NCBI GenBank assembly: GCA_034722995.1
Contig: JAYEOL010000022.1
Coordinates: 4,859-68,858, forward strand
DNA length: 64,000 nt
Direction: 5' to 3'
DNA from: Candidatus Cloacimonadota bacterium
GTDB taxonomy: Bacteria; Cloacimonadota; Cloacimonadia; JGIOTU-2
The translations under genes and the position numbers were made by a program. This document shows positions 2,510 to 60,871 of this stretch, in pieces. Under the pieces are notes generated by a model. The model searched no databases. It saw only the letters and a program-made list of their open reading frames with translations, and was not told the DNA's origin. Within the stretch, counting starts at the first letter, position 1. Each line of letters starts with the position of its first letter.

Positions 2510-3109
2510 ATGAAATTAGTTCTTGCAACTAAAAACAAAGACAAAATACAAGAGATAAAATCCCTTTTACAAGATTTAAACATAGACATTTTAACATTCA
2601 AAGATTTTGACTCTTTTCCTGATACAATTGAAGATAAGCTAACATTAGAAGGTAATGCGGGGAAAAAAGCTCAAGCAATTTGGCAAAATTTCAAACTCCC
2701 TGTTTTGGCTGACGATACAGGTTTATTCGTTGATGCTTTAAATGGCAAACCAGGTGTATATAGCTCCAGATTTGCTGGCGAGAATGCAACATACGAACAA
2801 AATAGAGAAAAACTCCTCTATATGTTAAAGGATATCCCAAAAGAAAAACGAACAGCAACCTTTAAAACAGTTATTGTTTTTGTTGACAAAAAAGGTAGCA
2901 AATTCGTAGTTAATGGTGAATGCAAAGGTTATATTGGATTTGAAGAAAGAGGCAAAAATGGCTTCGGTTATGATTCTATTTTTTATTATGATAATGTAAA
3001 TAAAAGTTTTGCAGAACTCTCCTCAGAGGAGAAGAATAAAGTCAGTCATAGAGGTATTGCTCTCAGAAAAATAAGAAGTATAATTGAGGAAAATATTAAG
3101 AATATATAA
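2510..3109 (+). CDS. rdgB: dITP/XTP pyrophosphatase (RdgB/Ham1 family)
   Basis: MKLVLATKNKDKIQEI..., DDTGLFVDALNGKPGVYS, SHRGIALRKI. The ORF track starts at 2492, but the conserved N-terminus begins at the ATG at 2510. Confidence 0.85.
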   Translation: MKLVLATKNKDKIQEIKSLLQDLNIDILTFKDFDSFPDTIEDKLTLEGNAGKKAQAIWQNFKLPVLADDTGLFVDALNGKPGVYSSRFAGENATYEQNREKLLYMLKDIPKEKRTATFKTVIVFVDKKGSKFVVNGECKGYIGFEERGKNGFGYDSIFYYDNVNKSFAELSSEEKNKVSHRGIALRKIRSIIEENIKNI

Positions 3110-6740: not shown

Positions 6741-8726
6741 ATGAAGAGACAAAATTTAAATGCTAATTTATCTGAGACATACAAGCAATTTGGTATGTTA
6801 AAATGGAAAATTCTATATTTATTCTTGGTTGCCTTATTATTATCAACACAGCTTTTTGCAGAAAATTGGATGCAACTTTATCCAGAAATTGATGGTCCAG
6901 TTGCTGATATGGAATTTTCAGAAATCCCTGGTATTTCTGAATATGGTTTGATTTTTGCTATTGCTGATAGCGGTGGAGGATTAGGATATTTTGATAGTCC
7001 TGGAAACTTTAGTATCTTTAATATTGCGACAAATCTGGGAGCAGTTTCTGTTGCACCTGATAATGCAAACAACCGTATTTTCTGTGCTTTTGGCTGTGGA
7101 AGTTATAGTGATGGACTCTATGAATTTGATGTTGCTACACATCAATTTGAACTAATAGAATGGGCTTTTAATCCAAATTTTGTAGAAAAACTTGCATCAG
7201 GATATTACTTTGGCTTTGGATGGGATTGGTTCGGAGGATTGTTTCATTCTGTTGATGGAGATAACTGGGCAAGCATTGATTATTTTAACAATAAAGTGGT
7301 AAGAGATATTGAAGAGACAAGTGATGGCACTCTCTTTGTTGCAGCGGGAAATGAAATTTGTATTGCAAACGATACTACTTTTAGCTCATTTGATACTGAT
7401 TTGCCAGTAAATGATATTTATGTTTGCCATTACCCAACAGAAGAGGTTTTTATTGCTTGTGGAGATGGCACTGATTCTGATGGAATTTATAAAGTAGAAT
7501 ATGAAGATGGAGAGATTACAGGGCTTACTTTGATAAACTGGGCAATTTATCCGAATGAAATTTATGAGTATACAGATTGGCTTGTAGTTGGATGTTTAAA
7601 TTCAGAGGGTCTCTGGCTTGTAGAACCAGTAGAAATGGGTGAAATACATCAAATAGGCACAGAACTTGATTTTGAGGATGTTTACTGTTTTGAAACATAT
7701 CCGATATATTGTCACAACATTATGGTTGGCACTGACAATGGAGTTTATTTAGGAACAAATTTGGAACCTGGTCCTTGTAATATTTCTGTATTTGAAGCAC
7801 ATTGGAATAGTTCGGATAATGTGTCAATTATTCATTGGCGAACTGAATCTGAAACAGATGTTATTGGTTTTTATATCTATCGTAATGATGAGCCTGATTT
7901 TAGCACAGCAGAACTAATTTCTGGTTTAATCCCCGGTCATGGCACTACAACAGAACCCCATGATTATTATTTTATAGATGTTGGCATAGTACCATATCCA
8001 ATGGATGAATATTGGTATTGGCTGGAAAGTGTAGATTTTGGTGGAGAATTCCATATTTATGGACCAACCAATTTACTCATTCCAAATTGTGTCCTTTCTA
8101 TTTTTGTTGCACAATATTTAGATAATACTCCAACTCTTTATTGGATAACACAATCAGAGACAGATAATTTAGGCTGGAATATTTATCGTTCAATAAATGA
8201 TGGTTTGTTTGCCAGTGCAGAGATGATAAATATTGGGTTGATTCCTGGCTATGGCACAACAACTGAACCACATAGTTATATTTATGAAGATCCGGATTTG
8301 GAAGCCAATTCAGGAGATATTATTTGGTATTGGCTGGAGAGTATAGATTTTGGTGGAGTATCTTATATTTATTATCCACCTGCAAGTCTGGTCATTCCGG
8401 AGATTGGTATTGATGAGAGACCTGCACACTCATCAGGTGTTGTATTATATCAGAATTTTCCCAATCCGTTTAGTCCCCGATTTAATCGGGGATCAACCAT
8501 GATTTCTTTCAATTTAGCCACAAAATCACACAAAAAAGCACTAATAAAAATTTACAATGTCAAAGGACAGATTGTAAAACAATTGTCAATAGTCAATTGT
8601 CAATCGTCAATTGAATGGGATGGAAAAGATGAAAATGGCAAACTACTTTCTAATGGAATTTATTTCTACAGATTGACAGTTGACGATAAGATTATTGATA
8701 CAAAAAAATGTGTGATTTTGAGATAA
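6741..8726 (+). CDS. Secreted T9SS cargo protein with two tandem repeats of about 100 aa
   Basis: GGAGGA RBS immediately before the ATG at 6741 (the track start at 6729 is TTG). Internal repeats ETD..G..IYR...GLIPG.GTTTEPH...WYWLES.DFGG. C-terminal YQNFPNPF...IYNVKGQIV...GIYFYRL. Confidence 0.75.
   Translation: MKRQNLNANLSETYKQFGMLKWKILYLFLVALLLSTQLFAENWMQLYPEIDGPVADMEFSEIPGISEYGLIFAIADSGGGLGYFDSPGNFSIFNIATNLGAVSVAPDNANNRIFCAFGCGSYSDGLYEFDVATHQFELIEWAFNPNFVEKLASGYYFGFGWDWFGGLFHSVDGDNWASIDYFNNKVVRDIEETSDGTLFVAAGNEICIANDTTFSSFDTDLPVNDIYVCHYPTEEVFIACGDGTDSDGIYKVEYEDGEITGLTLINWAIYPNEIYEYTDWLVVGCLNSEGLWLVEPVEMGEIHQIGTELDFEDVYCFETYPIYCHNIMVGTDNGVYLGTNLEPGPCNISVFEAHWNSSDNVSIIHWRTESETDVIGFYIYRNDEPDFSTAELISGLIPGHGTTTEPHDYYFIDVGIVPYPMDEYWYWLESVDFGGEFHIYGPTNLLIPNCVLSIFVAQYLDNTPTLYWITQSETDNLGWNIYRSINDGLFASAEMINIGLIPGYGTTTEPHSYIYEDPDLEANSGDIIWYWLESIDFGGVSYIYYPPASLVIPEIGIDERPAHSSGVVLYQNFPNPFSPRFNRGSTMISFNLATKSHKKALIKIYNVKGQIVKQLSIVNCQSSIEWDGKDENGKLLSNGIYFYRLTVDDKIIDTKKCVILR
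8474..8492 (+). repeat. 19-nt palindrome tccccgatt-t-aatcgggga inside the T9SS CTD coding sequence (encodes the extra peptide PRFNRGS)
   Basis: A near-identical copy, tccccgatttactcgggga, lies in non-coding DNA at 46350-46368. Confidence 0.7.
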
Positions 8727-15840: not shown

Positions 15841-16458
15841 AAAATACATAAATTGAAGATCAAAGAAAAAAAGATTAAAGGTAAAAGAGAAAAGAATGTA
15901 ATTGCCGATGAGCCCAAATCTAATTGGGGAGGCAATCCACAATAAAATTTAAATGAAAAAACAAAAGAGAAGTAATATGCAAGAGAGCAAATCTCCTAAC
16001 AATGACCCATATTTAATGCGAATAAATAAGGATGAAAAGTTGTATAAATTCTTTTTCTTTCGTCCAATTGCAGGACAGGACAGACATTTTGCAGATCTCA
16101 TTTAAGGGACTTTTAATTTTATTCATTCCAATGAGCTAAACTTCTGTTTTTATAATTTTCACTTCTCATCCTTAAATAAGGATTCTATTTAATATCCTTT
16201 TTTCCAAAAAATGTCAAAAGTTTTATTATTCTTCTTAAAAGTGAAATCCGTTTGAAATTAAAAAGTATGAGACAAACTTTTAAAGGAAACAGAATATAGT
16301 CTTGCTATTTAGTTTCCGGTGAAAAATTCAGCTATAATGTCAAATTACTAATTTCCAATGCCAAATAAAATGTCCAATATCAAATGACTAAAACCAATAC
16401 CAGTGAGACGATTTGCCTATTTTGTCATTTAGAAATTCCAAGTTATTGTCAATTCGTA

Positions 16459-34873: not shown

Positions 34874-34963
<90 letters not shown>

Positions 34964-35119: not shown

Positions 35120-35210
35120 GGAGAGATGCCAGAGTGGTTGAATGGGACGGTCTCGAAAATCGTTTTCCCGATTATCGGGAACGTGGGTTCGAATCCCACT
35201 CTCTCCGCCA
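35120..35210 (+). tRNA. tRNA-Ser(CGA), long variable arm (TTCCCGATTATCGGGAAC), encoded CCA
   Basis: Acceptor GGAGAGA/TCTCTCC, anticodon loop CTCGAAA, T-loop GTGGG TTCGAAT CCCAC. Confidence 0.85.
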
Positions 35211-36792: not shown

Positions 36793-37251
36793 ATGTTTGA
36801 AATCAAAATTTTAAAAACGAAAGATCATCTAAATGAAACAATAACAAAAAATTCAATTGTTGATTTTCTCTATGAACATTTAGACCGTTTTAGAGATACC
36901 AAAAGTGCAATTTCTAAATCTATTGATTATGCTTTTTCCAAAGAAAGCGGAAAAGGTGGATTTATTCTTACTGCAATAGAAAAGGGAAAAATTGTAGGAG
37001 CTGTTGTAATAAATAAAACTGGAATGACTGAATATATTCCTGAAAATGTTTTAGTTTATATTGCGGTTCATAAAGATTATAGAGTAGTTAAGGGTATAGG
37101 AAGATATCTTATGGAAAAAGCGCTTGATATTTCGGAGGGAGATATTTCTTTACATGTAGAATATGATAATAAAGCTGCAATAAAACTTTATAAAAGAATT
37201 GGTTTTTCAACAAAATATGTTGAAATGAGATATAAAAAATGTCAGAAGTAA
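36793..37251 (+). CDS. GNAT family N-acetyltransferase
   Basis: Motif A ...YIAVHKDYRVVKGIGRYLMEKAL; 152 aa. Confidence 0.75.
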   Translation: MFEIKILKTKDHLNETITKNSIVDFLYEHLDRFRDTKSAISKSIDYAFSKESGKGGFILTAIEKGKIVGAVVINKTGMTEYIPENVLVYIAVHKDYRVVKGIGRYLMEKALDISEGDISLHVEYDNKAAIKLYKRIGFSTKYVEMRYKKCQK

Positions 37252-38336
37252 TTATTAAAAAAAACAGAATTATTAGTAACATTGATAAAATTAATACATA
37301 TTTGGGCAATAATAACATCAAGTGGTCATTAATTGTAAAAGTTCTTTCCGGTCATAAAGAATTATTGCATTCGATACTTTCAAATCCTCTGATAAAAAAG
37401 GTCCATTCGATCGGTGATTCAAGACTCTCAAATTTGAAAGTAATAAAGAAAGTCGCTCCGGACATAGTTACAATGTATATCAAACCTACTGCTATCAAAA
37501 ATGTTAAATCTGTCATCAAATTCGCAGATATTTCATTTAATACAACTCTTTCAACTATTTTAGCATTAAATGAAGAAGCAAAAAAAAACAATAAGATTCA
37601 CAGAATAATTATCATGATTGAAATGGGAGAATTAAGAGAAGGAATTATTCGGGAAAATATTGTTGATTTTTATTCAAATATCTTTGAACTCTCCAACGTT
37701 AAAGTTATTGGTTTAGGAACTAATTTAGGTTGTATGTATGGAATTGAACCGACTTATGATAAATTGATACAATTGTCGCTTTATAAACAATTATTAGAAA
37801 CGAAATTCAATAAAAAATTAAACCTGATTTCCGGAGGGAGTTCCATAACACTTCCATTAATAGGAAAGCACAAAATTCCAAAAGCTGTAAATCATTTCAG
37901 AATAGGGGAAGCAGCATTTTTTGGGACATCTCCTTTTAATAATAAAAAATTTCGCAATTTTTCTACTGAAGCATTTGAATTTAAAGCAAACATTATTGAA
38001 TTAGAGGAAAAGGAAGTTGAACCTGATGGTATAATAAGTGATGGCAGTGTTGGTCATATAAAAGAAGCGGGAAAAGATGCTTCATTTCCAAAAAGTTATA
38101 AAGCTATTCTCGATTTTGGGATTTTAGATGTTGATGTGAATGAACTTACACTAAAAGATAAAAATATAAATTTCATTGGAACTACTTCCGATATGACTGT
38201 TTATGATATAGGTCCTAATTTAACAAAATTTCAAAGAACAAAATATAGAGTTGGTAAACAGATAAGTTTTCATCCCAGTTATATGGCTGTTGCAAGATTG
38301 ATGAGTTCGAAATTTGTTGAAAAGAAAATTGTTTAA
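37239..38336 (+). CDS. PLP-dependent alanine-racemase-fold protein (YhfX/ornithine-racemase-like)
   Basis: 365 aa; putative PLP lysine in WSLIVKVLSGH. Start overlaps the GNAT gene. Family assignment is tentative. Confidence 0.55.
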   Translation: MSEVIIKKNRIISNIDKINTYLGNNNIKWSLIVKVLSGHKELLHSILSNPLIKKVHSIGDSRLSNLKVIKKVAPDIVTMYIKPTAIKNVKSVIKFADISFNTTLSTILALNEEAKKNNKIHRIIIMIEMGELREGIIRENIVDFYSNIFELSNVKVIGLGTNLGCMYGIEPTYDKLIQLSLYKQLLETKFNKKLNLISGGSSITLPLIGKHKIPKAVNHFRIGEAAFFGTSPFNNKKFRNFSTEAFEFKANIIELEEKEVEPDGIISDGSVGHIKEAGKDASFPKSYKAILDFGILDVDVNELTLKDKNINFIGTTSDMTVYDIGPNLTKFQRTKYRVGKQISFHPSYMAVARLMSSKFVEKKIV

Positions 38337-38367
38337 ACAATATTTTCGCAAAATTTAGAATATTTAT

Positions 38368-38605
38368 ATGAGTTCTGCAAAATTAAGGAAAATTTCAAAA
38401 ACCATTAAAATGGTTGAAACTTTCTTTTCGTTTCGTTGTTACTTCCCACAACTGATCCGTTTGAGCCGGAGTAAACAGTTGCGGGTTAATTCAATACATT
38501 ATATGACATTATCCGGCAGTTGTCGGATCAACTGTGGGACAAAATATAACATAAACCAAACAACAACCGCTTCAGCGGTTTCCACTTCTATTTTGCAGAA
38601 CTCAT
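38368..38605 (+). promoter_or_regulatory. Structured 238-nt leader/element upstream of the APC permease. It has 16-bp terminal IRs (atgagttctgcaaaat / attttgcagaactcat), internal stems (cccacaactgatccg … cggatcaactgtggg) and a terminator-like hairpin (aaccgc-ttca-gcggtt + U-tract) at 38565-38596.
   Basis: Read directly. GC-richer than flanking DNA. The track ORF 38368-38613 inside it is probably spurious. Confidence 0.5.
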
Positions 38606-38630
38606 TAAGTTAAAAAGAATTGGAGGAAAG

Positions 38631-40205
38631 ATGAAAGAAGGAATAATTTTTACAAGGCGCGCCTCAGGACTCGTTAGAGAATTATCCTGGTTTGATGTAT
38701 TTATTTTTGTTGTTGCAGGTCCTGCTGCATCCGGTGTTATGTTCTATTCTGTATCAACGGCAGCAGATTTTCCGGGAGCAAGTTTACCTTTAGCTTTTTT
38801 GATCGGGCTTTTCATTTTTTTACCGATTATGCTATTAGTTGCAATTACTTCAGCAACAATGCCGCGTTCAGGTGGTTTATATATTGCGATTAGTAGAGTT
38901 TTAGGACCAACAATGGGTTTCATAAGTTCCTGGCTATTATTTATTGGATATGGAATTTCCAGTGGAGTTCTGGGTTATCTTGTGGTTGGTTTGATAGGTT
39001 CGGGATTTTCTACAGCAGCCTTAAGCAGCGGAATTGGCTGGTTAGCGAATGCAGGAAAAATAATGCAGACCTCAGCAGGTCAACTTGTCGGTGGAACTAT
39101 CTGGGTAATTTTCTTCTGGTATATAGCTTACACAGGAATTAGAAAAGTTAAAAAAATAATGCGGATTGCTTTCTTTATTCCTTTAGTTGGGACAGTAATC
39201 GCAATTTTTTGGTTTTTCCTTTCTGGTGGAATCGAGAGTGTATCTGCTGCTTTTAATCAAACATGGGGAGCAGGAGCATTTGAAGCCATTCAACAAAAAG
39301 CTGCTGAATTGGGTTGGAAAGCTCATAACTTTAACTGGGGAACAACCATCAGTTCTCTTATCGTAGTAATCTGGGCATATTCCAGTATTACGATTATCAA
39401 CTATGCAGGCGGTGAAATAAAAACTCCCAAAACCAGTATGATAAGAGGTTTTATGCTGGGAACTATTTTTGTGGGATTGTTTTATGTGATAATTGTAGTT
39501 GCTGTTTATAAGGCATTCGGAAATTTTATAGGTTGCTACGATTTTCTTTTTGATAATCATCCAAAAGTTCTTGCTGGAATTATGGGAGAAACTGTTAAAC
39601 CATCCATTCCTTTCTATTTTATGTCAATTGCCAAAAATGTCTGGTTCGGCTTGATCGTTGCAGTTTCCATAGCCTTATGGTTTGCAAATTCCATTCTTCC
39701 CGGATTTCTTGCAAATTCCAGGTTAGCTTTTGCTTTAGCAATGGATAAATCATTTCCGAAATCACTTGCAAAAGTAAACAGAAAAACAGGTTCTCCCACA
39801 AATGCTGTTCATTTGAATGCGGTTTTCTGCTTTATCGGCGTTTTGATAATGCTGCTTTCTGTAAATGTGATTCTTTCGATATTAACAGTTACCACCTTTT
39901 TTATTTTCTGGCCATATGGTTTAAGCGCAATGTTGCTTCCATATCATAAACCGGAGATTTATAATCGTTCACCGGTAAAATGGGAAATCTTCAAAATTCC
40001 GGTCATGAGTATATTAGGTGCATTTACATTTATTGTTGGCTGGTTTTTTATCTATCTGTCTATCAGAAATTTCTCACCAGTTATAATGCTAACCTTAATT
40101 GGTGTGATGTTGATTGGAATGGTCGTTTATTTAGTTCAGCAAAATAAGAACAAAAAAGATGGTGTGGATGTGAGTAAAATATATTCACAAATTCCACCTG
40201 AATAG
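38631..40205 (+). CDS. APC-superfamily amino acid permease
   Basis: 524 aa, about 12 predicted TM helices. Confidence 0.75.
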   Translation: MKEGIIFTRRASGLVRELSWFDVFIFVVAGPAASGVMFYSVSTAADFPGASLPLAFLIGLFIFLPIMLLVAITSATMPRSGGLYIAISRVLGPTMGFISSWLLFIGYGISSGVLGYLVVGLIGSGFSTAALSSGIGWLANAGKIMQTSAGQLVGGTIWVIFFWYIAYTGIRKVKKIMRIAFFIPLVGTVIAIFWFFLSGGIESVSAAFNQTWGAGAFEAIQQKAAELGWKAHNFNWGTTISSLIVVIWAYSSITIINYAGGEIKTPKTSMIRGFMLGTIFVGLFYVIIVVAVYKAFGNFIGCYDFLFDNHPKVLAGIMGETVKPSIPFYFMSIAKNVWFGLIVAVSIALWFANSILPGFLANSRLAFALAMDKSFPKSLAKVNRKTGSPTNAVHLNAVFCFIGVLIMLLSVNVILSILTVTTFFIFWPYGLSAMLLPYHKPEIYNRSPVKWEIFKIPVMSILGAFTFIVGWFFIYLSIRNFSPVIMLTLIGVMLIGMVVYLVQQNKNKKDGVDVSKIYSQIPPE

Positions 40206-40217
40206 AGGAGTTTATTT

Positions 40218-41168
40218 TTGGCGAAATTATTCTTTTCAGTTGATGTTCACGGCGCAAATAGTGTTTGGAGAAAATGGCTGCGGATTCCCGAACTTTATGG
40301 AGTTGATGCACTTCTATTATGTGGTGATCTAACTGGAAAATCACTTGTTCCCTTAATTGAAAAAGGAAAAGGTAAATACAATGCCTATTATTTTGGGAGA
40401 AATTGGACTCTGGAAAAAGGAAAAGAAGCGGATGAAATGGAAAAGCGAATTCAGGATGCAGGAGCTTATACATTGAGATGCAATTCCGACAAAATTAAAG
40501 AACTTGAAAATAATCCTGAACAAGTTGAAAAACTGATGATGCAAATGATAAAAGATAGAATTCATTATTGGATGGAAATGCTCATCGCTAAGATCGATCT
40601 TTCCAAAGTTGATGTAGTTGCTATGCCCGGAAATGATGATGATCATGAAATCGATGAAGTTATAAAATCCTTTGGAGATAAAGGAGTAATTTGGTGTCTG
40701 GATGATGCAATTGATATTCTGGGAATTCCTACTATAAGTCTCGATTATGTAAATCCAACTCCGTGGGACACACCAAGAGAAGATAATGAGAAAGGAATGA
40801 AAAAACGTCTTAAGAAACTTATTAAAAAACTCGATGACCCATCTCAATCAATTTTCAATTTTCACGCACCTCCCTATGGAACCATGCTCGATCTTGCTCC
40901 AGAACTCGATGCAAATAAAAAACCGGTAACTGTTGCCGGACAGGTAAATTTTGTGCATGTCGGCTGTAAAGCTGTTACAGAAGCTATTGAAAAATATCAG
41001 CCATTAATTGGGCTTCACGGACATATTCACGAATCATACGGTCATGATAAGATCGGAAATACTCCGGTTGTGAATCCGGGCTCTGAATATGGCGAAGGAA
41101 TTTTGCGTGGATTTATTGTCGAAATAAAAGATAAGAAAATTATCAATTATTGGAAAGTAGAAGGTTAA
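40218..41168 (+). CDS. Metallophosphoesterase (calcineurin-like)
   Basis: Metal-ligand motifs GDLTG, GNDDDHE, GHIHES. Confidence 0.75.
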   Translation: MAKLFFSVDVHGANSVWRKWLRIPELYGVDALLLCGDLTGKSLVPLIEKGKGKYNAYYFGRNWTLEKGKEADEMEKRIQDAGAYTLRCNSDKIKELENNPEQVEKLMMQMIKDRIHYWMEMLIAKIDLSKVDVVAMPGNDDDHEIDEVIKSFGDKGVIWCLDDAIDILGIPTISLDYVNPTPWDTPREDNEKGMKKRLKKLIKKLDDPSQSIFNFHAPPYGTMLDLAPELDANKKPVTVAGQVNFVHVGCKAVTEAIEKYQPLIGLHGHIHESYGHDKIGNTPVVNPGSEYGEGILRGFIVEIKDKKIINYWKVEG

Positions 41169-46192: not shown

Positions 46193-47200
46193 ACTTTTTA
46201 TAAACAGTTTAGTTTTCATATTTTAAAAGCAGGCATCATTGACAATGGTAAAATGAAGTTGCCATTTTAGATGCTAAACTCTCCACCTAAATCTTTTAAA
46301 TCCGAAAGAGGATAAACCTGTTTCTACCCACCAACTGACAGGTATCCCTTCCCCGATTTACTCGGGGATAATTGTGGATGGCTTTTCATCCTTCGCAGTA
46401 GCACTGCTACGGAGAATGGATATCCCCAATCAAAATAAAGTGAAAGTTATTTCCAATGGGAAAGATCTATTTCTAAAGCCCTTACTTTTTTTAAAAAAGT
46501 TAAACGAAACTCAATTTTTGGTAAATTAGAAATCGAAATAATCAAATTCTTTTGAAATATTACCTTTAATAGATTTTCTTAACTCTCTAATTTTATTGAA
46601 AGACATTTCTGATAGTTTTATTTTAGGAGTAATAAAAATTTTTACTTCTATGTTATCGGGAAAAGGAATATTGTCTAATTCTAAATCTCCTATCCGGGAA
46701 GGTATTATGAATTGTTTTTTTATCATCTAAAGTCATCACACGAAGAAATTTGTCACCCAACTCAGGGATTATACCCAAAAAGGATATCTATTACCTTCCT
46801 GTCTTTCTACTTTAATTGGTTTCTCTAAAACCCGAATATACTATTCCTTTTTAAGATAAGGTCGTTTTATCAAAAACTTACTTTCAAAATATTTGGTCCG
46901 CCAACTGGCGGATATTTTAACATCACATACCTTATTTACTGAAGTTTTTGTTCATAATAAAAGAATTTCTGTCTAACTAATAATTATACTGCATATTCCA
47001 GTCTAACATCCTATCTTATTCGTTAACAACTCAATTATATAATGCAAGTTACCAAAATAAATAAATGAGAGAAAACTTGTATTATATTTAATCAAAATAA
47101 TTTATTTAAAAAGAAGTGTAAATTAAAAAGAATTAATTTTTGCTTGACATTAAAATTTAAAGAGACAATTTCAGTGTACTTTTCAATGGAAAAGTGAAAA

Positions 47201-55043: not shown

Positions 55044-55111
55044 GGAAATAGGGTAGAAATTAAAGATTAAAGTGCTGAAAAGATTAAAGCAAAAAAGAGA
55101 GGAGAAACAAA

Positions 55112-55465
55112 ATGGCAATAAAAACACCAAACATTAACAATGTAACTTTAGCCGGAAACATTGTAAGAGACCCAGAAATACGAGAAGTTGGTGAGAAAAA
55201 GACGAAAGTTACTACAATTACAGTAGCAAATAACCGTCCGTATCAAGATAAAGATGGGAAATGGCAAAAGGAGACTACTTTTGTTGATGCTGAAGTATGG
55301 GGTTTACAAGCAGAAAAACTCGGTGAATACGGCAAAAAAGGCACGCCAGTTATTGTGGAAGGAAATCTAAAACTTAATAAGTGGGAAGATAAAGAAGGAA
55401 AATCGTATTCTAAATTACGGATAAGAGCCAATAGAATTCATATTCTAAATTATCCAGAGAAATAG
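55112..55465 (+). CDS. ssb: Single-stranded DNA-binding protein, OB domain only, no acidic C-terminal tail (copy 1)
   Basis: Aligns to the E. coli SSB OB fold (NNVTLAGNIVRDPEIR..., VWGLQAEKLGEYGKKGTPVIVEGNLKLNKWEDKEGK); 117 aa. Confidence 0.85.
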   Translation: MAIKTPNINNVTLAGNIVRDPEIREVGEKKTKVTTITVANNRPYQDKDGKWQKETTFVDAEVWGLQAEKLGEYGKKGTPVIVEGNLKLNKWEDKEGKSYSKLRIRANRIHILNYPEK

Positions 55466-55601
55466 TGCTCCGATTTATCGGAGTGAATCTAGATAGTTAT
55501 AAAATTTTGGAAAAAGATTAAAGTGCTTGAAAGATTAAAGATTAAAGTTCTGGAAAGATTAATGCAAAAATGAGATATGGCAAAATATGATAAAATATAA
55601 A

Positions 55602-55765
55602 TTAGGATTAGCCCCACAATTTATTGTGGGGTAAAGAAATAAAAGAATATTTTAACTGTTTCAACAGTTTACCCGCTTACAGAAAGAGTTTATGGGAAAC
55701 CGATGAATCGGTTAAGTATTTCTTTTTTTTAGGTTCCCCCTGATAAATCAGGGGGCTAATCCTAA
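55602..55765. repeat. 164-bp nested inverted-repeat element between SSB copies 1 and 2: outer 11-bp IR (ttaggattagc / gctaatcctaa) enclosing four hairpins
   Basis: Hairpins ccccacaat/attgtgggg, aactgtt/aacagtt, aaccgat/atcggtt and ccccctgat/atcaggggg, read directly. Followed by tattttgcagaacccat, a copy of the right TIR at 38590-38605. Confidence 0.55.
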
Positions 55766-55816
55766 AAATATCTATTTTGCAGAACCCATTTAATGCAAAA
55801 AAGAGAGGATAACACA

Positions 55817-56170
55817 ATGGCTATCAGAACACCAAACATTAACAATGTAACTTTAGCCGGAAACATTGTAAGAGACCCAGAAATACGAGAAGTTGGTGAG
55901 AAAAAGACGAAAGTTACTACAATTACAGTAGCAAATAACCGTCCGTATCAAGATAAAGATGGGAAATGGCAAAAAGAGACTACTTTTGTTGATGCTGAAG
56001 TATGGGGTTTACAAGCAGAAAAACTCGGTGAATATGGCAAAAAAGGCACGCCAGTTATTGTGGAAGGGAATCTAAAACTTAATAAGTGGGATGATAAAGA
56101 AGGAAAGTCTCATTCTAAATTACTGATAAGAGCGAATAGAGTTCATATTCTAAATTATTCGGAGAAATGA
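55817..56170 (+). CDS. ssb: Tail-less SSB paralog (copy 2)
   Basis: About 97% nucleotide identity to copy 1. The conserved start is the ATG at 55817 with the same AGAGAGGA RBS (the track ORF starts upstream at 55793). Confidence 0.8.
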   Translation: MAIRTPNINNVTLAGNIVRDPEIREVGEKKTKVTTITVANNRPYQDKDGKWQKETTFVDAEVWGLQAEKLGEYGKKGTPVIVEGNLKLNKWDDKEGKSHSKLLIRANRVHILNYSEK

Positions 56171-56991: not shown

Positions 56992-57339
56992 ATGGCAATA
57001 AGAACACCAAACATTAACAATGTAACTTTAGCCGGAAACATTGTAAGAGACCCAGAAATACGAGAAGTTGGTGAGAAAAAGACGAAAGTGACAACAATTA
57101 CAGTAGCAAATAACCGTCCGTATCAAGATAAAGATGGGAAATGGCAAAAAGAGACTACTTTTGTTGATGCTGAAGTATGGGGTTTACAAGCAGAAAAACT
57201 CGGTGAATATGGCAAAAAAGGCACGCCAGTTATTGTGGAAGGGAATCTAAAACTTAATAAGTGGGATGATAAAGAAGGAAAGTCTCATTCTAAATTACTG
57301 ATAAGAGCGAAAAGAGTTCATATTCTGGTCATGCCATAG
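56992..57339 (+). CDS. ssb: Tail-less SSB paralog (copy 3), with an altered 3' end
   Basis: Near-identical to copies 1 and 2, including the 25-nt upstream region. The last codons differ (…HILVMP*) because of a 16-nt indel. Confidence 0.8.
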   Translation: MAIRTPNINNVTLAGNIVRDPEIREVGEKKTKVTTITVANNRPYQDKDGKWQKETTFVDAEVWGLQAEKLGEYGKKGTPVIVEGNLKLNKWDDKEGKSHSKLLIRAKRVHILVMP

Positions 57340-58899: not shown

Positions 58900-59006
58900 C
58901 CATCCTCCGTCCCGAAAAAAGTCGGGACTGCGCCTGTCCACCGTAATATCCGTTCTCCATAGCAGTGCTACTGCGAAGGATGAACTATGGAAGGCGGGGA
59001 GGATGG
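58900..59006. repeat. Nested IR element: outer ccatcctcc / ggaggatgg enclosing hairpin gtcccgaaaaaagtcgggac and a ctccatag[cagtgctactg]…ctatggaag stem
   Basis: Read directly. The core ccgttctccatagcagtgctactgcgaaggatgaa recurs in the opposite orientation at 46385-46419. Confidence 0.55.
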
Positions 59007-60518: not shown

Positions 60519-60710
60519 TGAATCGCAAAGCGTGAAAAGTGGAGTAAATTTACTCCTACTCAACAAATATTAATGATAGGGAATGATTATAAAATTAAAA
60601 CTAAAAAATCAAAGAAAAAATAAAAAGAGTAAAGACTAAAGACCAAAGTAACACAATCCATGCCAAAGGCAGACAGGCGTCTCGATTGTGAAGATTAAAG
60701 ATTAAAGATA

Positions 60711-60852
60711 AGTAGCACGGATCCCCGCGTCCGCGGGGACTGTTCCGTAAAAGACCAAAAATTATCCACCTTCACTATAGTTACGGAGGACAAGAAGGTA
60801 AACGGAAAGTAGCACGGATCCCCCCGTCCGCTGGGACTGTTTCGTAAAAGAT
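60711..60852. repeat. Two 45-nt direct repeats (agtagcacggatcccc[g/c]cgtccgc[g/t]gggactgtt[c/t]cgtaaaaga) with a 97-nt period
   Basis: Read directly. Each contains a ccccgcg-tc-cgcgggg hairpin. The sequence between them has a homolog at 62100-62140. Confidence 0.55.
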
Positions 60853-60871
60853 TAAAGAAAAAAAATTAAGA

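Follow-up and report, generated by a model that had tools for sequence, protein, structure and literature searches.

Non-autonomous DNA transposons (MITEs) depend for their movement on a transposase supplied in trans. The Correia elements of Neisseria are 100–155 bp long, with 26-bp repeats and a TA duplication. These short non-coding MITEs (CREE/NEMIS) lie mostly directly 5' of genes and carry outward promoters, and their transcribed repeats are a substrate for RNase III (PMC10969869). BrickBuilt and MITEPgRS, MITEs of Porphyromonas gingivalis and thus of the FCB group (Fibrobacterota, Chlorobiota and Bacteroidota), are always intergenic and have bidirectional promoter activity; BrickBuilt duplications are irregular, at 2–5 bp (PMC4596501). 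The IS5-family partners ISPg1, ISPg4 and ISNme1 have repeats of the GAG....TGCA(AAA) type, that of ISNme1 reading GAGACCTTTGCAAAA (PMC4596501 Table 2).

A 64-kb stretch of DNA from a Candidatus Cloacimonadota MAG, here called the window, was analysed. The segment at 38368–38605 of the window is very probably (about 0.87) one copy of a MITE of Candidatus Cloacimonadota. In behaviour it is closest to the Correia elements of Neisseria, as a short non-coding MITE with terminal inverted repeats directly 5' of genes. It differs from them in its length (238 bp), its 16-bp repeat core, the 10–11-bp duplication of its family and its host, a member of another phylum. The two have no sequence similarity, and the promoter activity of the window element is putative. 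Membership of the Correia family is ruled out by the repeat, the duplication length and the host.

The window element also resembles BrickBuilt and the PgRS MITEs, and it is a member of neither family. By eye, the GAGTTCTGCAAAAT of the window family resembles the GAGACCTTTGCAAAA of ISNme1 and the repeats of ISPg1, a partial likeness that needs a gap and has no statistics attached (PMC4596501 Table 2). The interiors are unrelated to those of BrickBuilt and MITEPgRS, and no IS5-family transposase is linked to the family of the window element. Duplications in the IS5 family are 2–9 bp (ISfinder groups), and 10–11 bp, as found in the window element's family, is not typical. In Bacteroides, insertion sequences with outward TAnnTTTG promoters switch on cfiA, cepA or nim genes. 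Like them, the window element has in its terminus a candidate −7 box of the FCB type, some tens of bases 5' of a start codon. The Bacteroides elements, however, are full-length and antibiotic-selected, whereas the window element is a 238-bp non-coding derivative with a presumptive promoter function. Literature searches on the repeat sequence and on MITEs in Cloacimonadota returned nothing. The element is of an ordinary kind, and its family was matched to no described one.

Architecture of the segment and its junctions

The original prediction described the segment as a structured leader of the permease gene, either a riboswitch or attenuator or an inserted element with terminal inverted repeats. 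The perfect 16-bp repeats that it placed at the two ends are there, with arms that are 100% complementary (16/16). From base composition, about 0.03 perfect 16-bp pairs with arms no more than 300 nt apart are expected by chance in 64 kb. The boundaries of the segment are those of family copies that bear target-site duplications. Read outward on the minus strand, the left repeat includes a perfect TAATTTTG. The segment had also been called richer in GC than its flanks. This is true of the left side (37% against 27%) but not of the permease side, which has 38%. Features of the segment and its surroundings are listed in the table.

Features of the window that bear on the reading of segment 38368–38605
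Feature	Position	Strand	Basis
Very probable complete MITE copy, 238 bp	38368..38605	.	7-copy family profile, nhmmer: 38369–38604, E 1e-72
Left terminal inverted repeat, ATGAGTTCTGCAAAAT	38368..38383	.	first 57 nt near-invariant in 7 copies
Right terminal inverted repeat, ATTTTGCAGAACTCAT	38590..38605	.	last ~45 nt near-invariant in the copies compared
Hairpin 1, subterminal palindrome GGAAAATTTCA...TGAAA(C/T)TTTC, inner stem AACCATT/AATGGTT	38385..38427	.	consensus structure, columns 18–60
Hairpin 2, stem CCCACAACTG / CAGTTGCGGG, variable loop module	38445..38485	.	inverted-repeat search, copy alignment, consensus fold
Hairpin 3, CCGGCAGTTG / CAACTGTGGG	38513..38538	.	inverted-repeat search, copy alignment
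Hairpin 4, AACCGC-TTCA-GCGGTT	38565..38580	.	terminator scan, copy alignment, consensus fold
Outward TTTG box in right repeat, candidate −7 promoter element	38592..38595	+	39 nt 5' of permease ATG; position only
Alanine-racemase-N-domain protein, upstream neighbour	37239..38336	+	Pfam Ala_racemase_N, E 4e-9
Shine-Dalgarno GGAGG of permease	38622..38626	+	16 nt past element end; read from sequence
APC-family amino-acid permease, downstream neighbour	38631..40205	+	Pfam AA_permease_2, E 2.5e-28
Second MITE, same superfamily of terminal inverted repeats, left ATGAGATATGGCAAAAT, right ATTTTGCAGAACCCAT	55570..55789	.	11-bp target-site duplication and uninterrupted paralogous site

Consensus folds of both strands consist of the repeat stem and four hairpins. 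The plus strand of the window copy folds at −77.4 kcal/mol (z −5.3 against shuffles) and the minus strand at −86.9 kcal/mol (z −7.5). Pairs of hairpin 1 are all invariant or near-invariant among the copies, while the loop of hairpin 2 has different content from copy to copy or is deleted. Because hairpin 3 resembles hairpin 2, a long-range alternative pairing is available between 38444–38459 and 38524–38539. This is the first of two internal paired blocks that had been predicted, and it extends over 16 nt with 88% complementarity; the second amounts to only a 6-bp GCCGGA/UCCGGC stem. Hairpin 4 is kept in all copies, three of which have a 35-nt insertion in its loop.

Hairpin 4 had been described as a canonical intrinsic terminator 30 nt before the permease start codon. 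The hairpin exists, but the term is overstated because its plus-strand tail, TCCACTTC..., has no proper U-run and fails the terminator criterion of the scan, which reports the hairpin on the minus strand only. The hairpin ends 50 nt, and the T-run 35 nt, before the ATG. An 81-codon ORF spans the window copy. It has no Pfam match, and its frame is broken by indels in other copies.

The ends of the family copies are near-invariant even between different genomes, and the middle is modular. It is built of hairpin modules in which the stem sequence is kept while loops are swapped, deleted or expanded. Near-invariant ends, a modular middle and no covariation form the pattern of a transposase-recognised DNA element with no selected RNA fold. 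The folding of the segment is a by-product of its inverted repeats and palindromic modules, with no ligand-binding RNA fold.

The permease encoded in the window is 100% identical to P0001, which one source lists as an APC permease of Candidatus Cloacimonadota. The right end of the element lies 25 nt 5' of the permease ATG. A target-site duplication is absent from this copy (gaatatttat on one side, taagttaaaa on the other). Homology to one close relative, L005, continues up to 38354 (80% identity), breaks off, and begins again at 38631 (91.5%). In comparison with the closest relatives (L005 and L008), identity is about 80% over a left block, 36794–38354, that includes the GNAT and racemase genes, and 91.5% over a right block, 38631–41168. 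The element therefore falls exactly at the boundary of two blocks that differ in history, and it marks a recombination breakpoint. The left junction has probably lost its duplication in the rearrangement or recombination that set the intergenic region apart from close relatives, and the missing duplication fits a rearranged left junction.

Copies of the element and the wider repeat superfamily

Eleven orthologous loci (L001–L011) were fetched in which the permease is 82% to >90% identical to that of the window (P0001 90%-identity cluster). BLAST of the element against all eleven gave no match, and they include relatives with 91.5% nucleotide identity, so conservation of the segment upstream of orthologous permeases was not found. 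Upstream of the permease, L001 has a spacer of 50 nt, L003 one of 39 nt and L002 an unrelated one of 288 nt. The closest relatives (L004–L011) keep the order GNAT, racemase, permease, with a racemase–permease interval of 1.4 kb that holds genes of 72 and 258 aa and no terminal repeat. The element thus shows presence/absence polymorphism, being missing in close relatives. No relative among these loci has the racemase–permease junction intact, since the gene has either different neighbours or the 1.4-kb stretch there, and there is no clean empty site for the window copy.

Metagenomes were scanned with the pattern TTCTGCAAAAT, 191–221 nt, ATTTTGCAGAA. The scan returned 98 loci with 89 unique elements, and in 56/89 the inverted repeat extends beyond the searched core (at least 11/15 further bases complementary), giving at least 56 members besides the window element. 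The window element is part of this much larger set of elements of about 215–250 bp with a terminal repeat core of (A/T)GAG- or AGGC-TTCTGCAAAAT. The terminal repeats of the superfamily are written here as (A/T)GAGTTCTGCAAAAT and AAGGCTTCTGCAAAAT. Tips are TGGAG in hosts of 60–69% GC and ATGAG/AAGGC in hosts of about 50–57% GC, and a third family has TGAAC. Flanking direct repeats of 10–11 bp occur at many of the scan elements (e.g. L022, L036, L065, L082 and L106), and the element at 7137–7310 of L050 is flanked by the direct repeat CTTAAGATTAT.

True homologues of the window element in the metagenome scan are L062 and an element listed as both L061 and L042. Scanning genomes with the ends of the subfamily added L123, L128, L130 and L147, four contigs of one Cloacimonadota genome (CSMAG_2896), and L124 from another genome; the L147 copy is cut by the contig end. 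Full-length homologues are 70–82% identical to the window element and lie at other loci. The copies are 212–273 bp long, all keep the terminal inverted repeats, and all are found by a 7-copy profile with E values from 1e-49 to 1e-72. With the same profile in nhmmer, no further copy of the subfamily was found in the 64-kb window. Target-site duplications flank the copies in L123 (TAAAAAGTGAT), L124 (TTCCTTTCATA) and L130 (TATCAAAGGTA), with near-duplications in L128 (9/11 bases) and L062 (10/11 bases).

The parent element was sought as long-range repeat pairs with no more than 3 mismatches in 0.98 Mb of fetched DNA, by plasmid BLAST and by a scan of viral contigs. Neither the ~1 Mb of fetched DNA nor the plasmids or viral contigs yielded an autonomous element that combines these repeats with a transposase gene. 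One viral contig in IMG/VR (L148, 3284–3507) has a pair that fits the repeat pattern.

The original prediction had also noted a recurrence of the right repeat elsewhere in the window. This recurrence is real, with 15/16 bases matching at 55774–55789, and is the right end of the second MITE. Its 11-bp target-site duplication, TTAATGCAAAA, lies at 55559–55569 and 55790–55800. The element stands 27 nt 5' of an SSB gene, and the uninterrupted upstream region of paralogous ssb copy 1 (55059–55112) is its empty site. The interior is unrelated to that of 38368–38605 but equally hairpin-rich (DNA fold z −6.6). Its asymmetric left end is also found in L012 (2547–2781). Between them, the multiple copies, the duplications at other copies, the variable presence between relatives and this second member of the superfamily in the window bear out the alternative of an inserted terminal-repeat element.

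Other repeats were seen in the window. Three tandem copies of the SSB gene (55112–55465, 55817–56170 and 56992–57339) share a 300-nt repeat with 93–96% identity, and a MITE precedes the middle copy only. Two tRNA-Ser genes at 34874–34963 and 35120–35210, with GGA and CGA anticodons, are each followed by a 45-nt repeat, 96% identical between the two. The two arms of a 39-nt inverted repeat with 95% identity, at 46385–46423 and 58946–58984, are separated by 12.5 kb. A 62-nt direct repeat, whose core is a GC-rich hairpin, lies at 60698–60759 and 60795–60856. These last two may represent other small repeat families.

Solo motifs were also examined. At 16086–16101 lies an intergenic repeat-like motif, ATTTTGCAGATCTCAT (15/16 bases), with TTAAGG next to it, an arrangement also seen at other ends of elements. 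Neither a partner repeat nor a duplication was detected for this motif, and it may be a decayed element or remnant. A motif at 3006–3021 was rejected as an element end; it is inside an ORF and probably due to chance. TTTTCCTTAATTTTGCAGAA, which contains TAATTTTG, is found singly in a number of genomes of Bacteroidota and Ignavibacteriota (L113, L114, L121, L133, L137, L144 and L146), where it may be a common FCB-group promoter form rather than an element end.

Placement upstream of start codons and a candidate promoter box

Distances from element ends to start codons were compared among families. One end lies 15–29 nt 5' of a start codon in 9/11 AT-rich elements (ORFs of at least 82 codons). 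Eight of those nine ends are at 23–29 nt, and GGAG follows 14–19 nt past the element end. In the mid-GC family 14/22 elements have an end 19–34 nt from a start, with a peak at 25–27 nt, and the gene-facing end is nearly always of the GCCTT type. The typical mid-GC layout is element end, 10–11-bp duplication, 4–6 nt, AGGAG, 5–8 nt and ATG. The GC-rich family has a broader peak at 10–41 nt. At random intergenic positions of the same DNA a start is found at 19–34 nt in 4.7% of cases and at 10–45 nt in 10%. The window copy, with 25 nt to the ATG and 16 nt to GGAGG, fits the family spacing.

Throughout the superfamily (L012–L109, L123–L130 and the window) an element end at 19–34 nt from a start is far commoner than the 4.7% of random positions; the GCCTT/CCCTT-type end usually faces the gene, and the ribosome-binding site begins 4–6 nt past the duplication. 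The genes downstream are unrelated and form no coherent set: amino-acid permease, SSB, aldehyde dehydrogenase, DAHP synthase, MarR regulator, T9SS protein, Cache-domain protein and DUF4342. That the TTCTGCAAAAT-repeat elements are a cross-phylum MITE class with a preferred orientation and a fixed site just before the ribosome-binding site, about 25 nt 5' of the start codon, acting as mobile promoter or insulator cassettes, is possible but less likely than not. If it were true, the transposase would have to read the translation-start context, or there would have to be strong selection for promoter delivery.

A TTTG-containing −7 promoter element is known from Bacteroidota. In the window, TTTG lies between −55 and −26 in 16/32 genes, and at −30 to −49 there are 14 occurrences where 5.7 are expected. 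Because TTTG is enriched in this way, and the right repeat has a TTTG 39 nt before the ATG, the element may supply the permease promoter. The right-end box, TATTTTG, lacks one base of the TAnnTTTG consensus of Bacteroidota, and no −33 element is evident at the box. A promoter role for the box and a terminator role for the element are both suggested by the position of these motifs.

In the mechanism that we propose, a transposase acting in trans would recognise the terminal repeat together with the adjoining conserved subterminal sequence, about 50 bp at either end, and would make a 10–11-bp staggered cut in the target. At this locus the TTTG of the right repeat would be the −7 element of the permease, and the transcript would start at the edge of the element. 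Transcripts reading through from the racemase gene would be halted or processed at the internal hairpins. The permease would then be under constitutive, element-borne control and not under metabolite sensing. With such a promoter, the predicted structured leader would lie outside the permease mRNA.

A MITE could also be functionally silent here, the permease being cotranscribed with the racemase or read from a promoter 5' of the element, and the element serving as a self-folding spacer. The evidence for the promoter is positional, only 294 nt separate the racemase gene from the permease gene on their common strand, and the 16-bp closing stem would loop the insert out of the mRNA. On the other hand, ends without effect on the neighbouring gene would hardly account for the narrow start-codon spacing and the orientation bias, and the internal hairpins would be expected to hinder read-through. 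We regard a silent insert as quite possible, though not as the favoured explanation.

Readings of the segment as RNA or as a palindromic repeat

Comparative covariation analysis of the consensus folds found a compensatory change in 1/53 pairs on the plus strand and in 0/60 on the minus strand. The covariation term is positive, which is a penalty, on both strands. These values bear on the idea that the copies are dispersed sRNA-like genes for structured non-coding RNAs, perhaps expressed from the minus strand, whose spread only mimics that of a MITE. The minus strand folds better than the plus strand, and three A-C mismatches of the plus strand become G-U pairs on the minus strand. This G-U preference was rejected as evidence of selection on an RNA, as it concerns three positions only. 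A partial copy of the hairpin-2 module on the minus strand of L062 (11355–11440) has a double compensatory change in its stem, from CCCACAACT/AGTTGTGGG to CCACCAACT/AGTTGGTGG, and is the sole clearly compensated stem seen. Elsewhere the stems are conserved in sequence without covariation and the loops are freely swapped, deleted or expanded; moreover, no promoter or terminator frames the minus-strand unit, and the target-site duplications show that the unit is inserted as DNA. An sRNA-like origin is highly unlikely.

An interior of several short GC-rich palindromes, together with the failure to find a DDE partner, would suit a REP/BIME-like repeat that owes its spread to a Y1 (RAYT-type) enzyme or recombination and not to a DDE transposase. 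To our knowledge, however, REP/BIME elements have neither long terminal inverted repeats nor 10–11-bp flanking duplications, and the family of the window element has both. We consider this origin extremely unlikely.

With lysine and glycine riboswitches and T-box leaders the segment shares its structure, its position 5' of an amino-acid transporter gene and a terminator-like hairpin. A scan against Rfam gave nothing at the gathering score and nothing relevant at E values up to 10, where the best local matches were to plant microRNA models, none with E below 0.09. Unlike such leaders, the segment matches no model, is not conserved together with the gene, lacks covariation and is clearly mobile. 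A multi-stem aptamer that binds a ligand and is closed by the 16-bp helix, the AACCGC/GCGGTT hairpin acting as expression platform for the permease, would account for the strong predicted folding directly 5' of a transporter gene and for the alternative pairings that the CAACTG/CAGTTG blocks offer, but it is for practical purposes refuted, as is an attenuator, by the Rfam result, the eleven orthologous permease loci without the element, the same element upstream of functionally unrelated genes, the near-absence of compensatory change, the target-site duplications at other copies and a plus-strand hairpin that does not qualify as a terminator.

Reading the segment as a MITE copy removes one false riboswitch candidate from annotation. 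The TTCTGCAAAAT core is a recognisable signature of a repeat family that will give "structured leader" false positives in Cloacimonadota and in many sediment metagenomes. Placement just 5' of ribosome-binding sites is of interest if it reflects targeting or promoter delivery, and the same holds for the promoter-like box in the terminal repeat. The family would then lend itself as a clean natural system to work on the rewiring of transcription by mobile elements in little-studied phyla of the FCB group.
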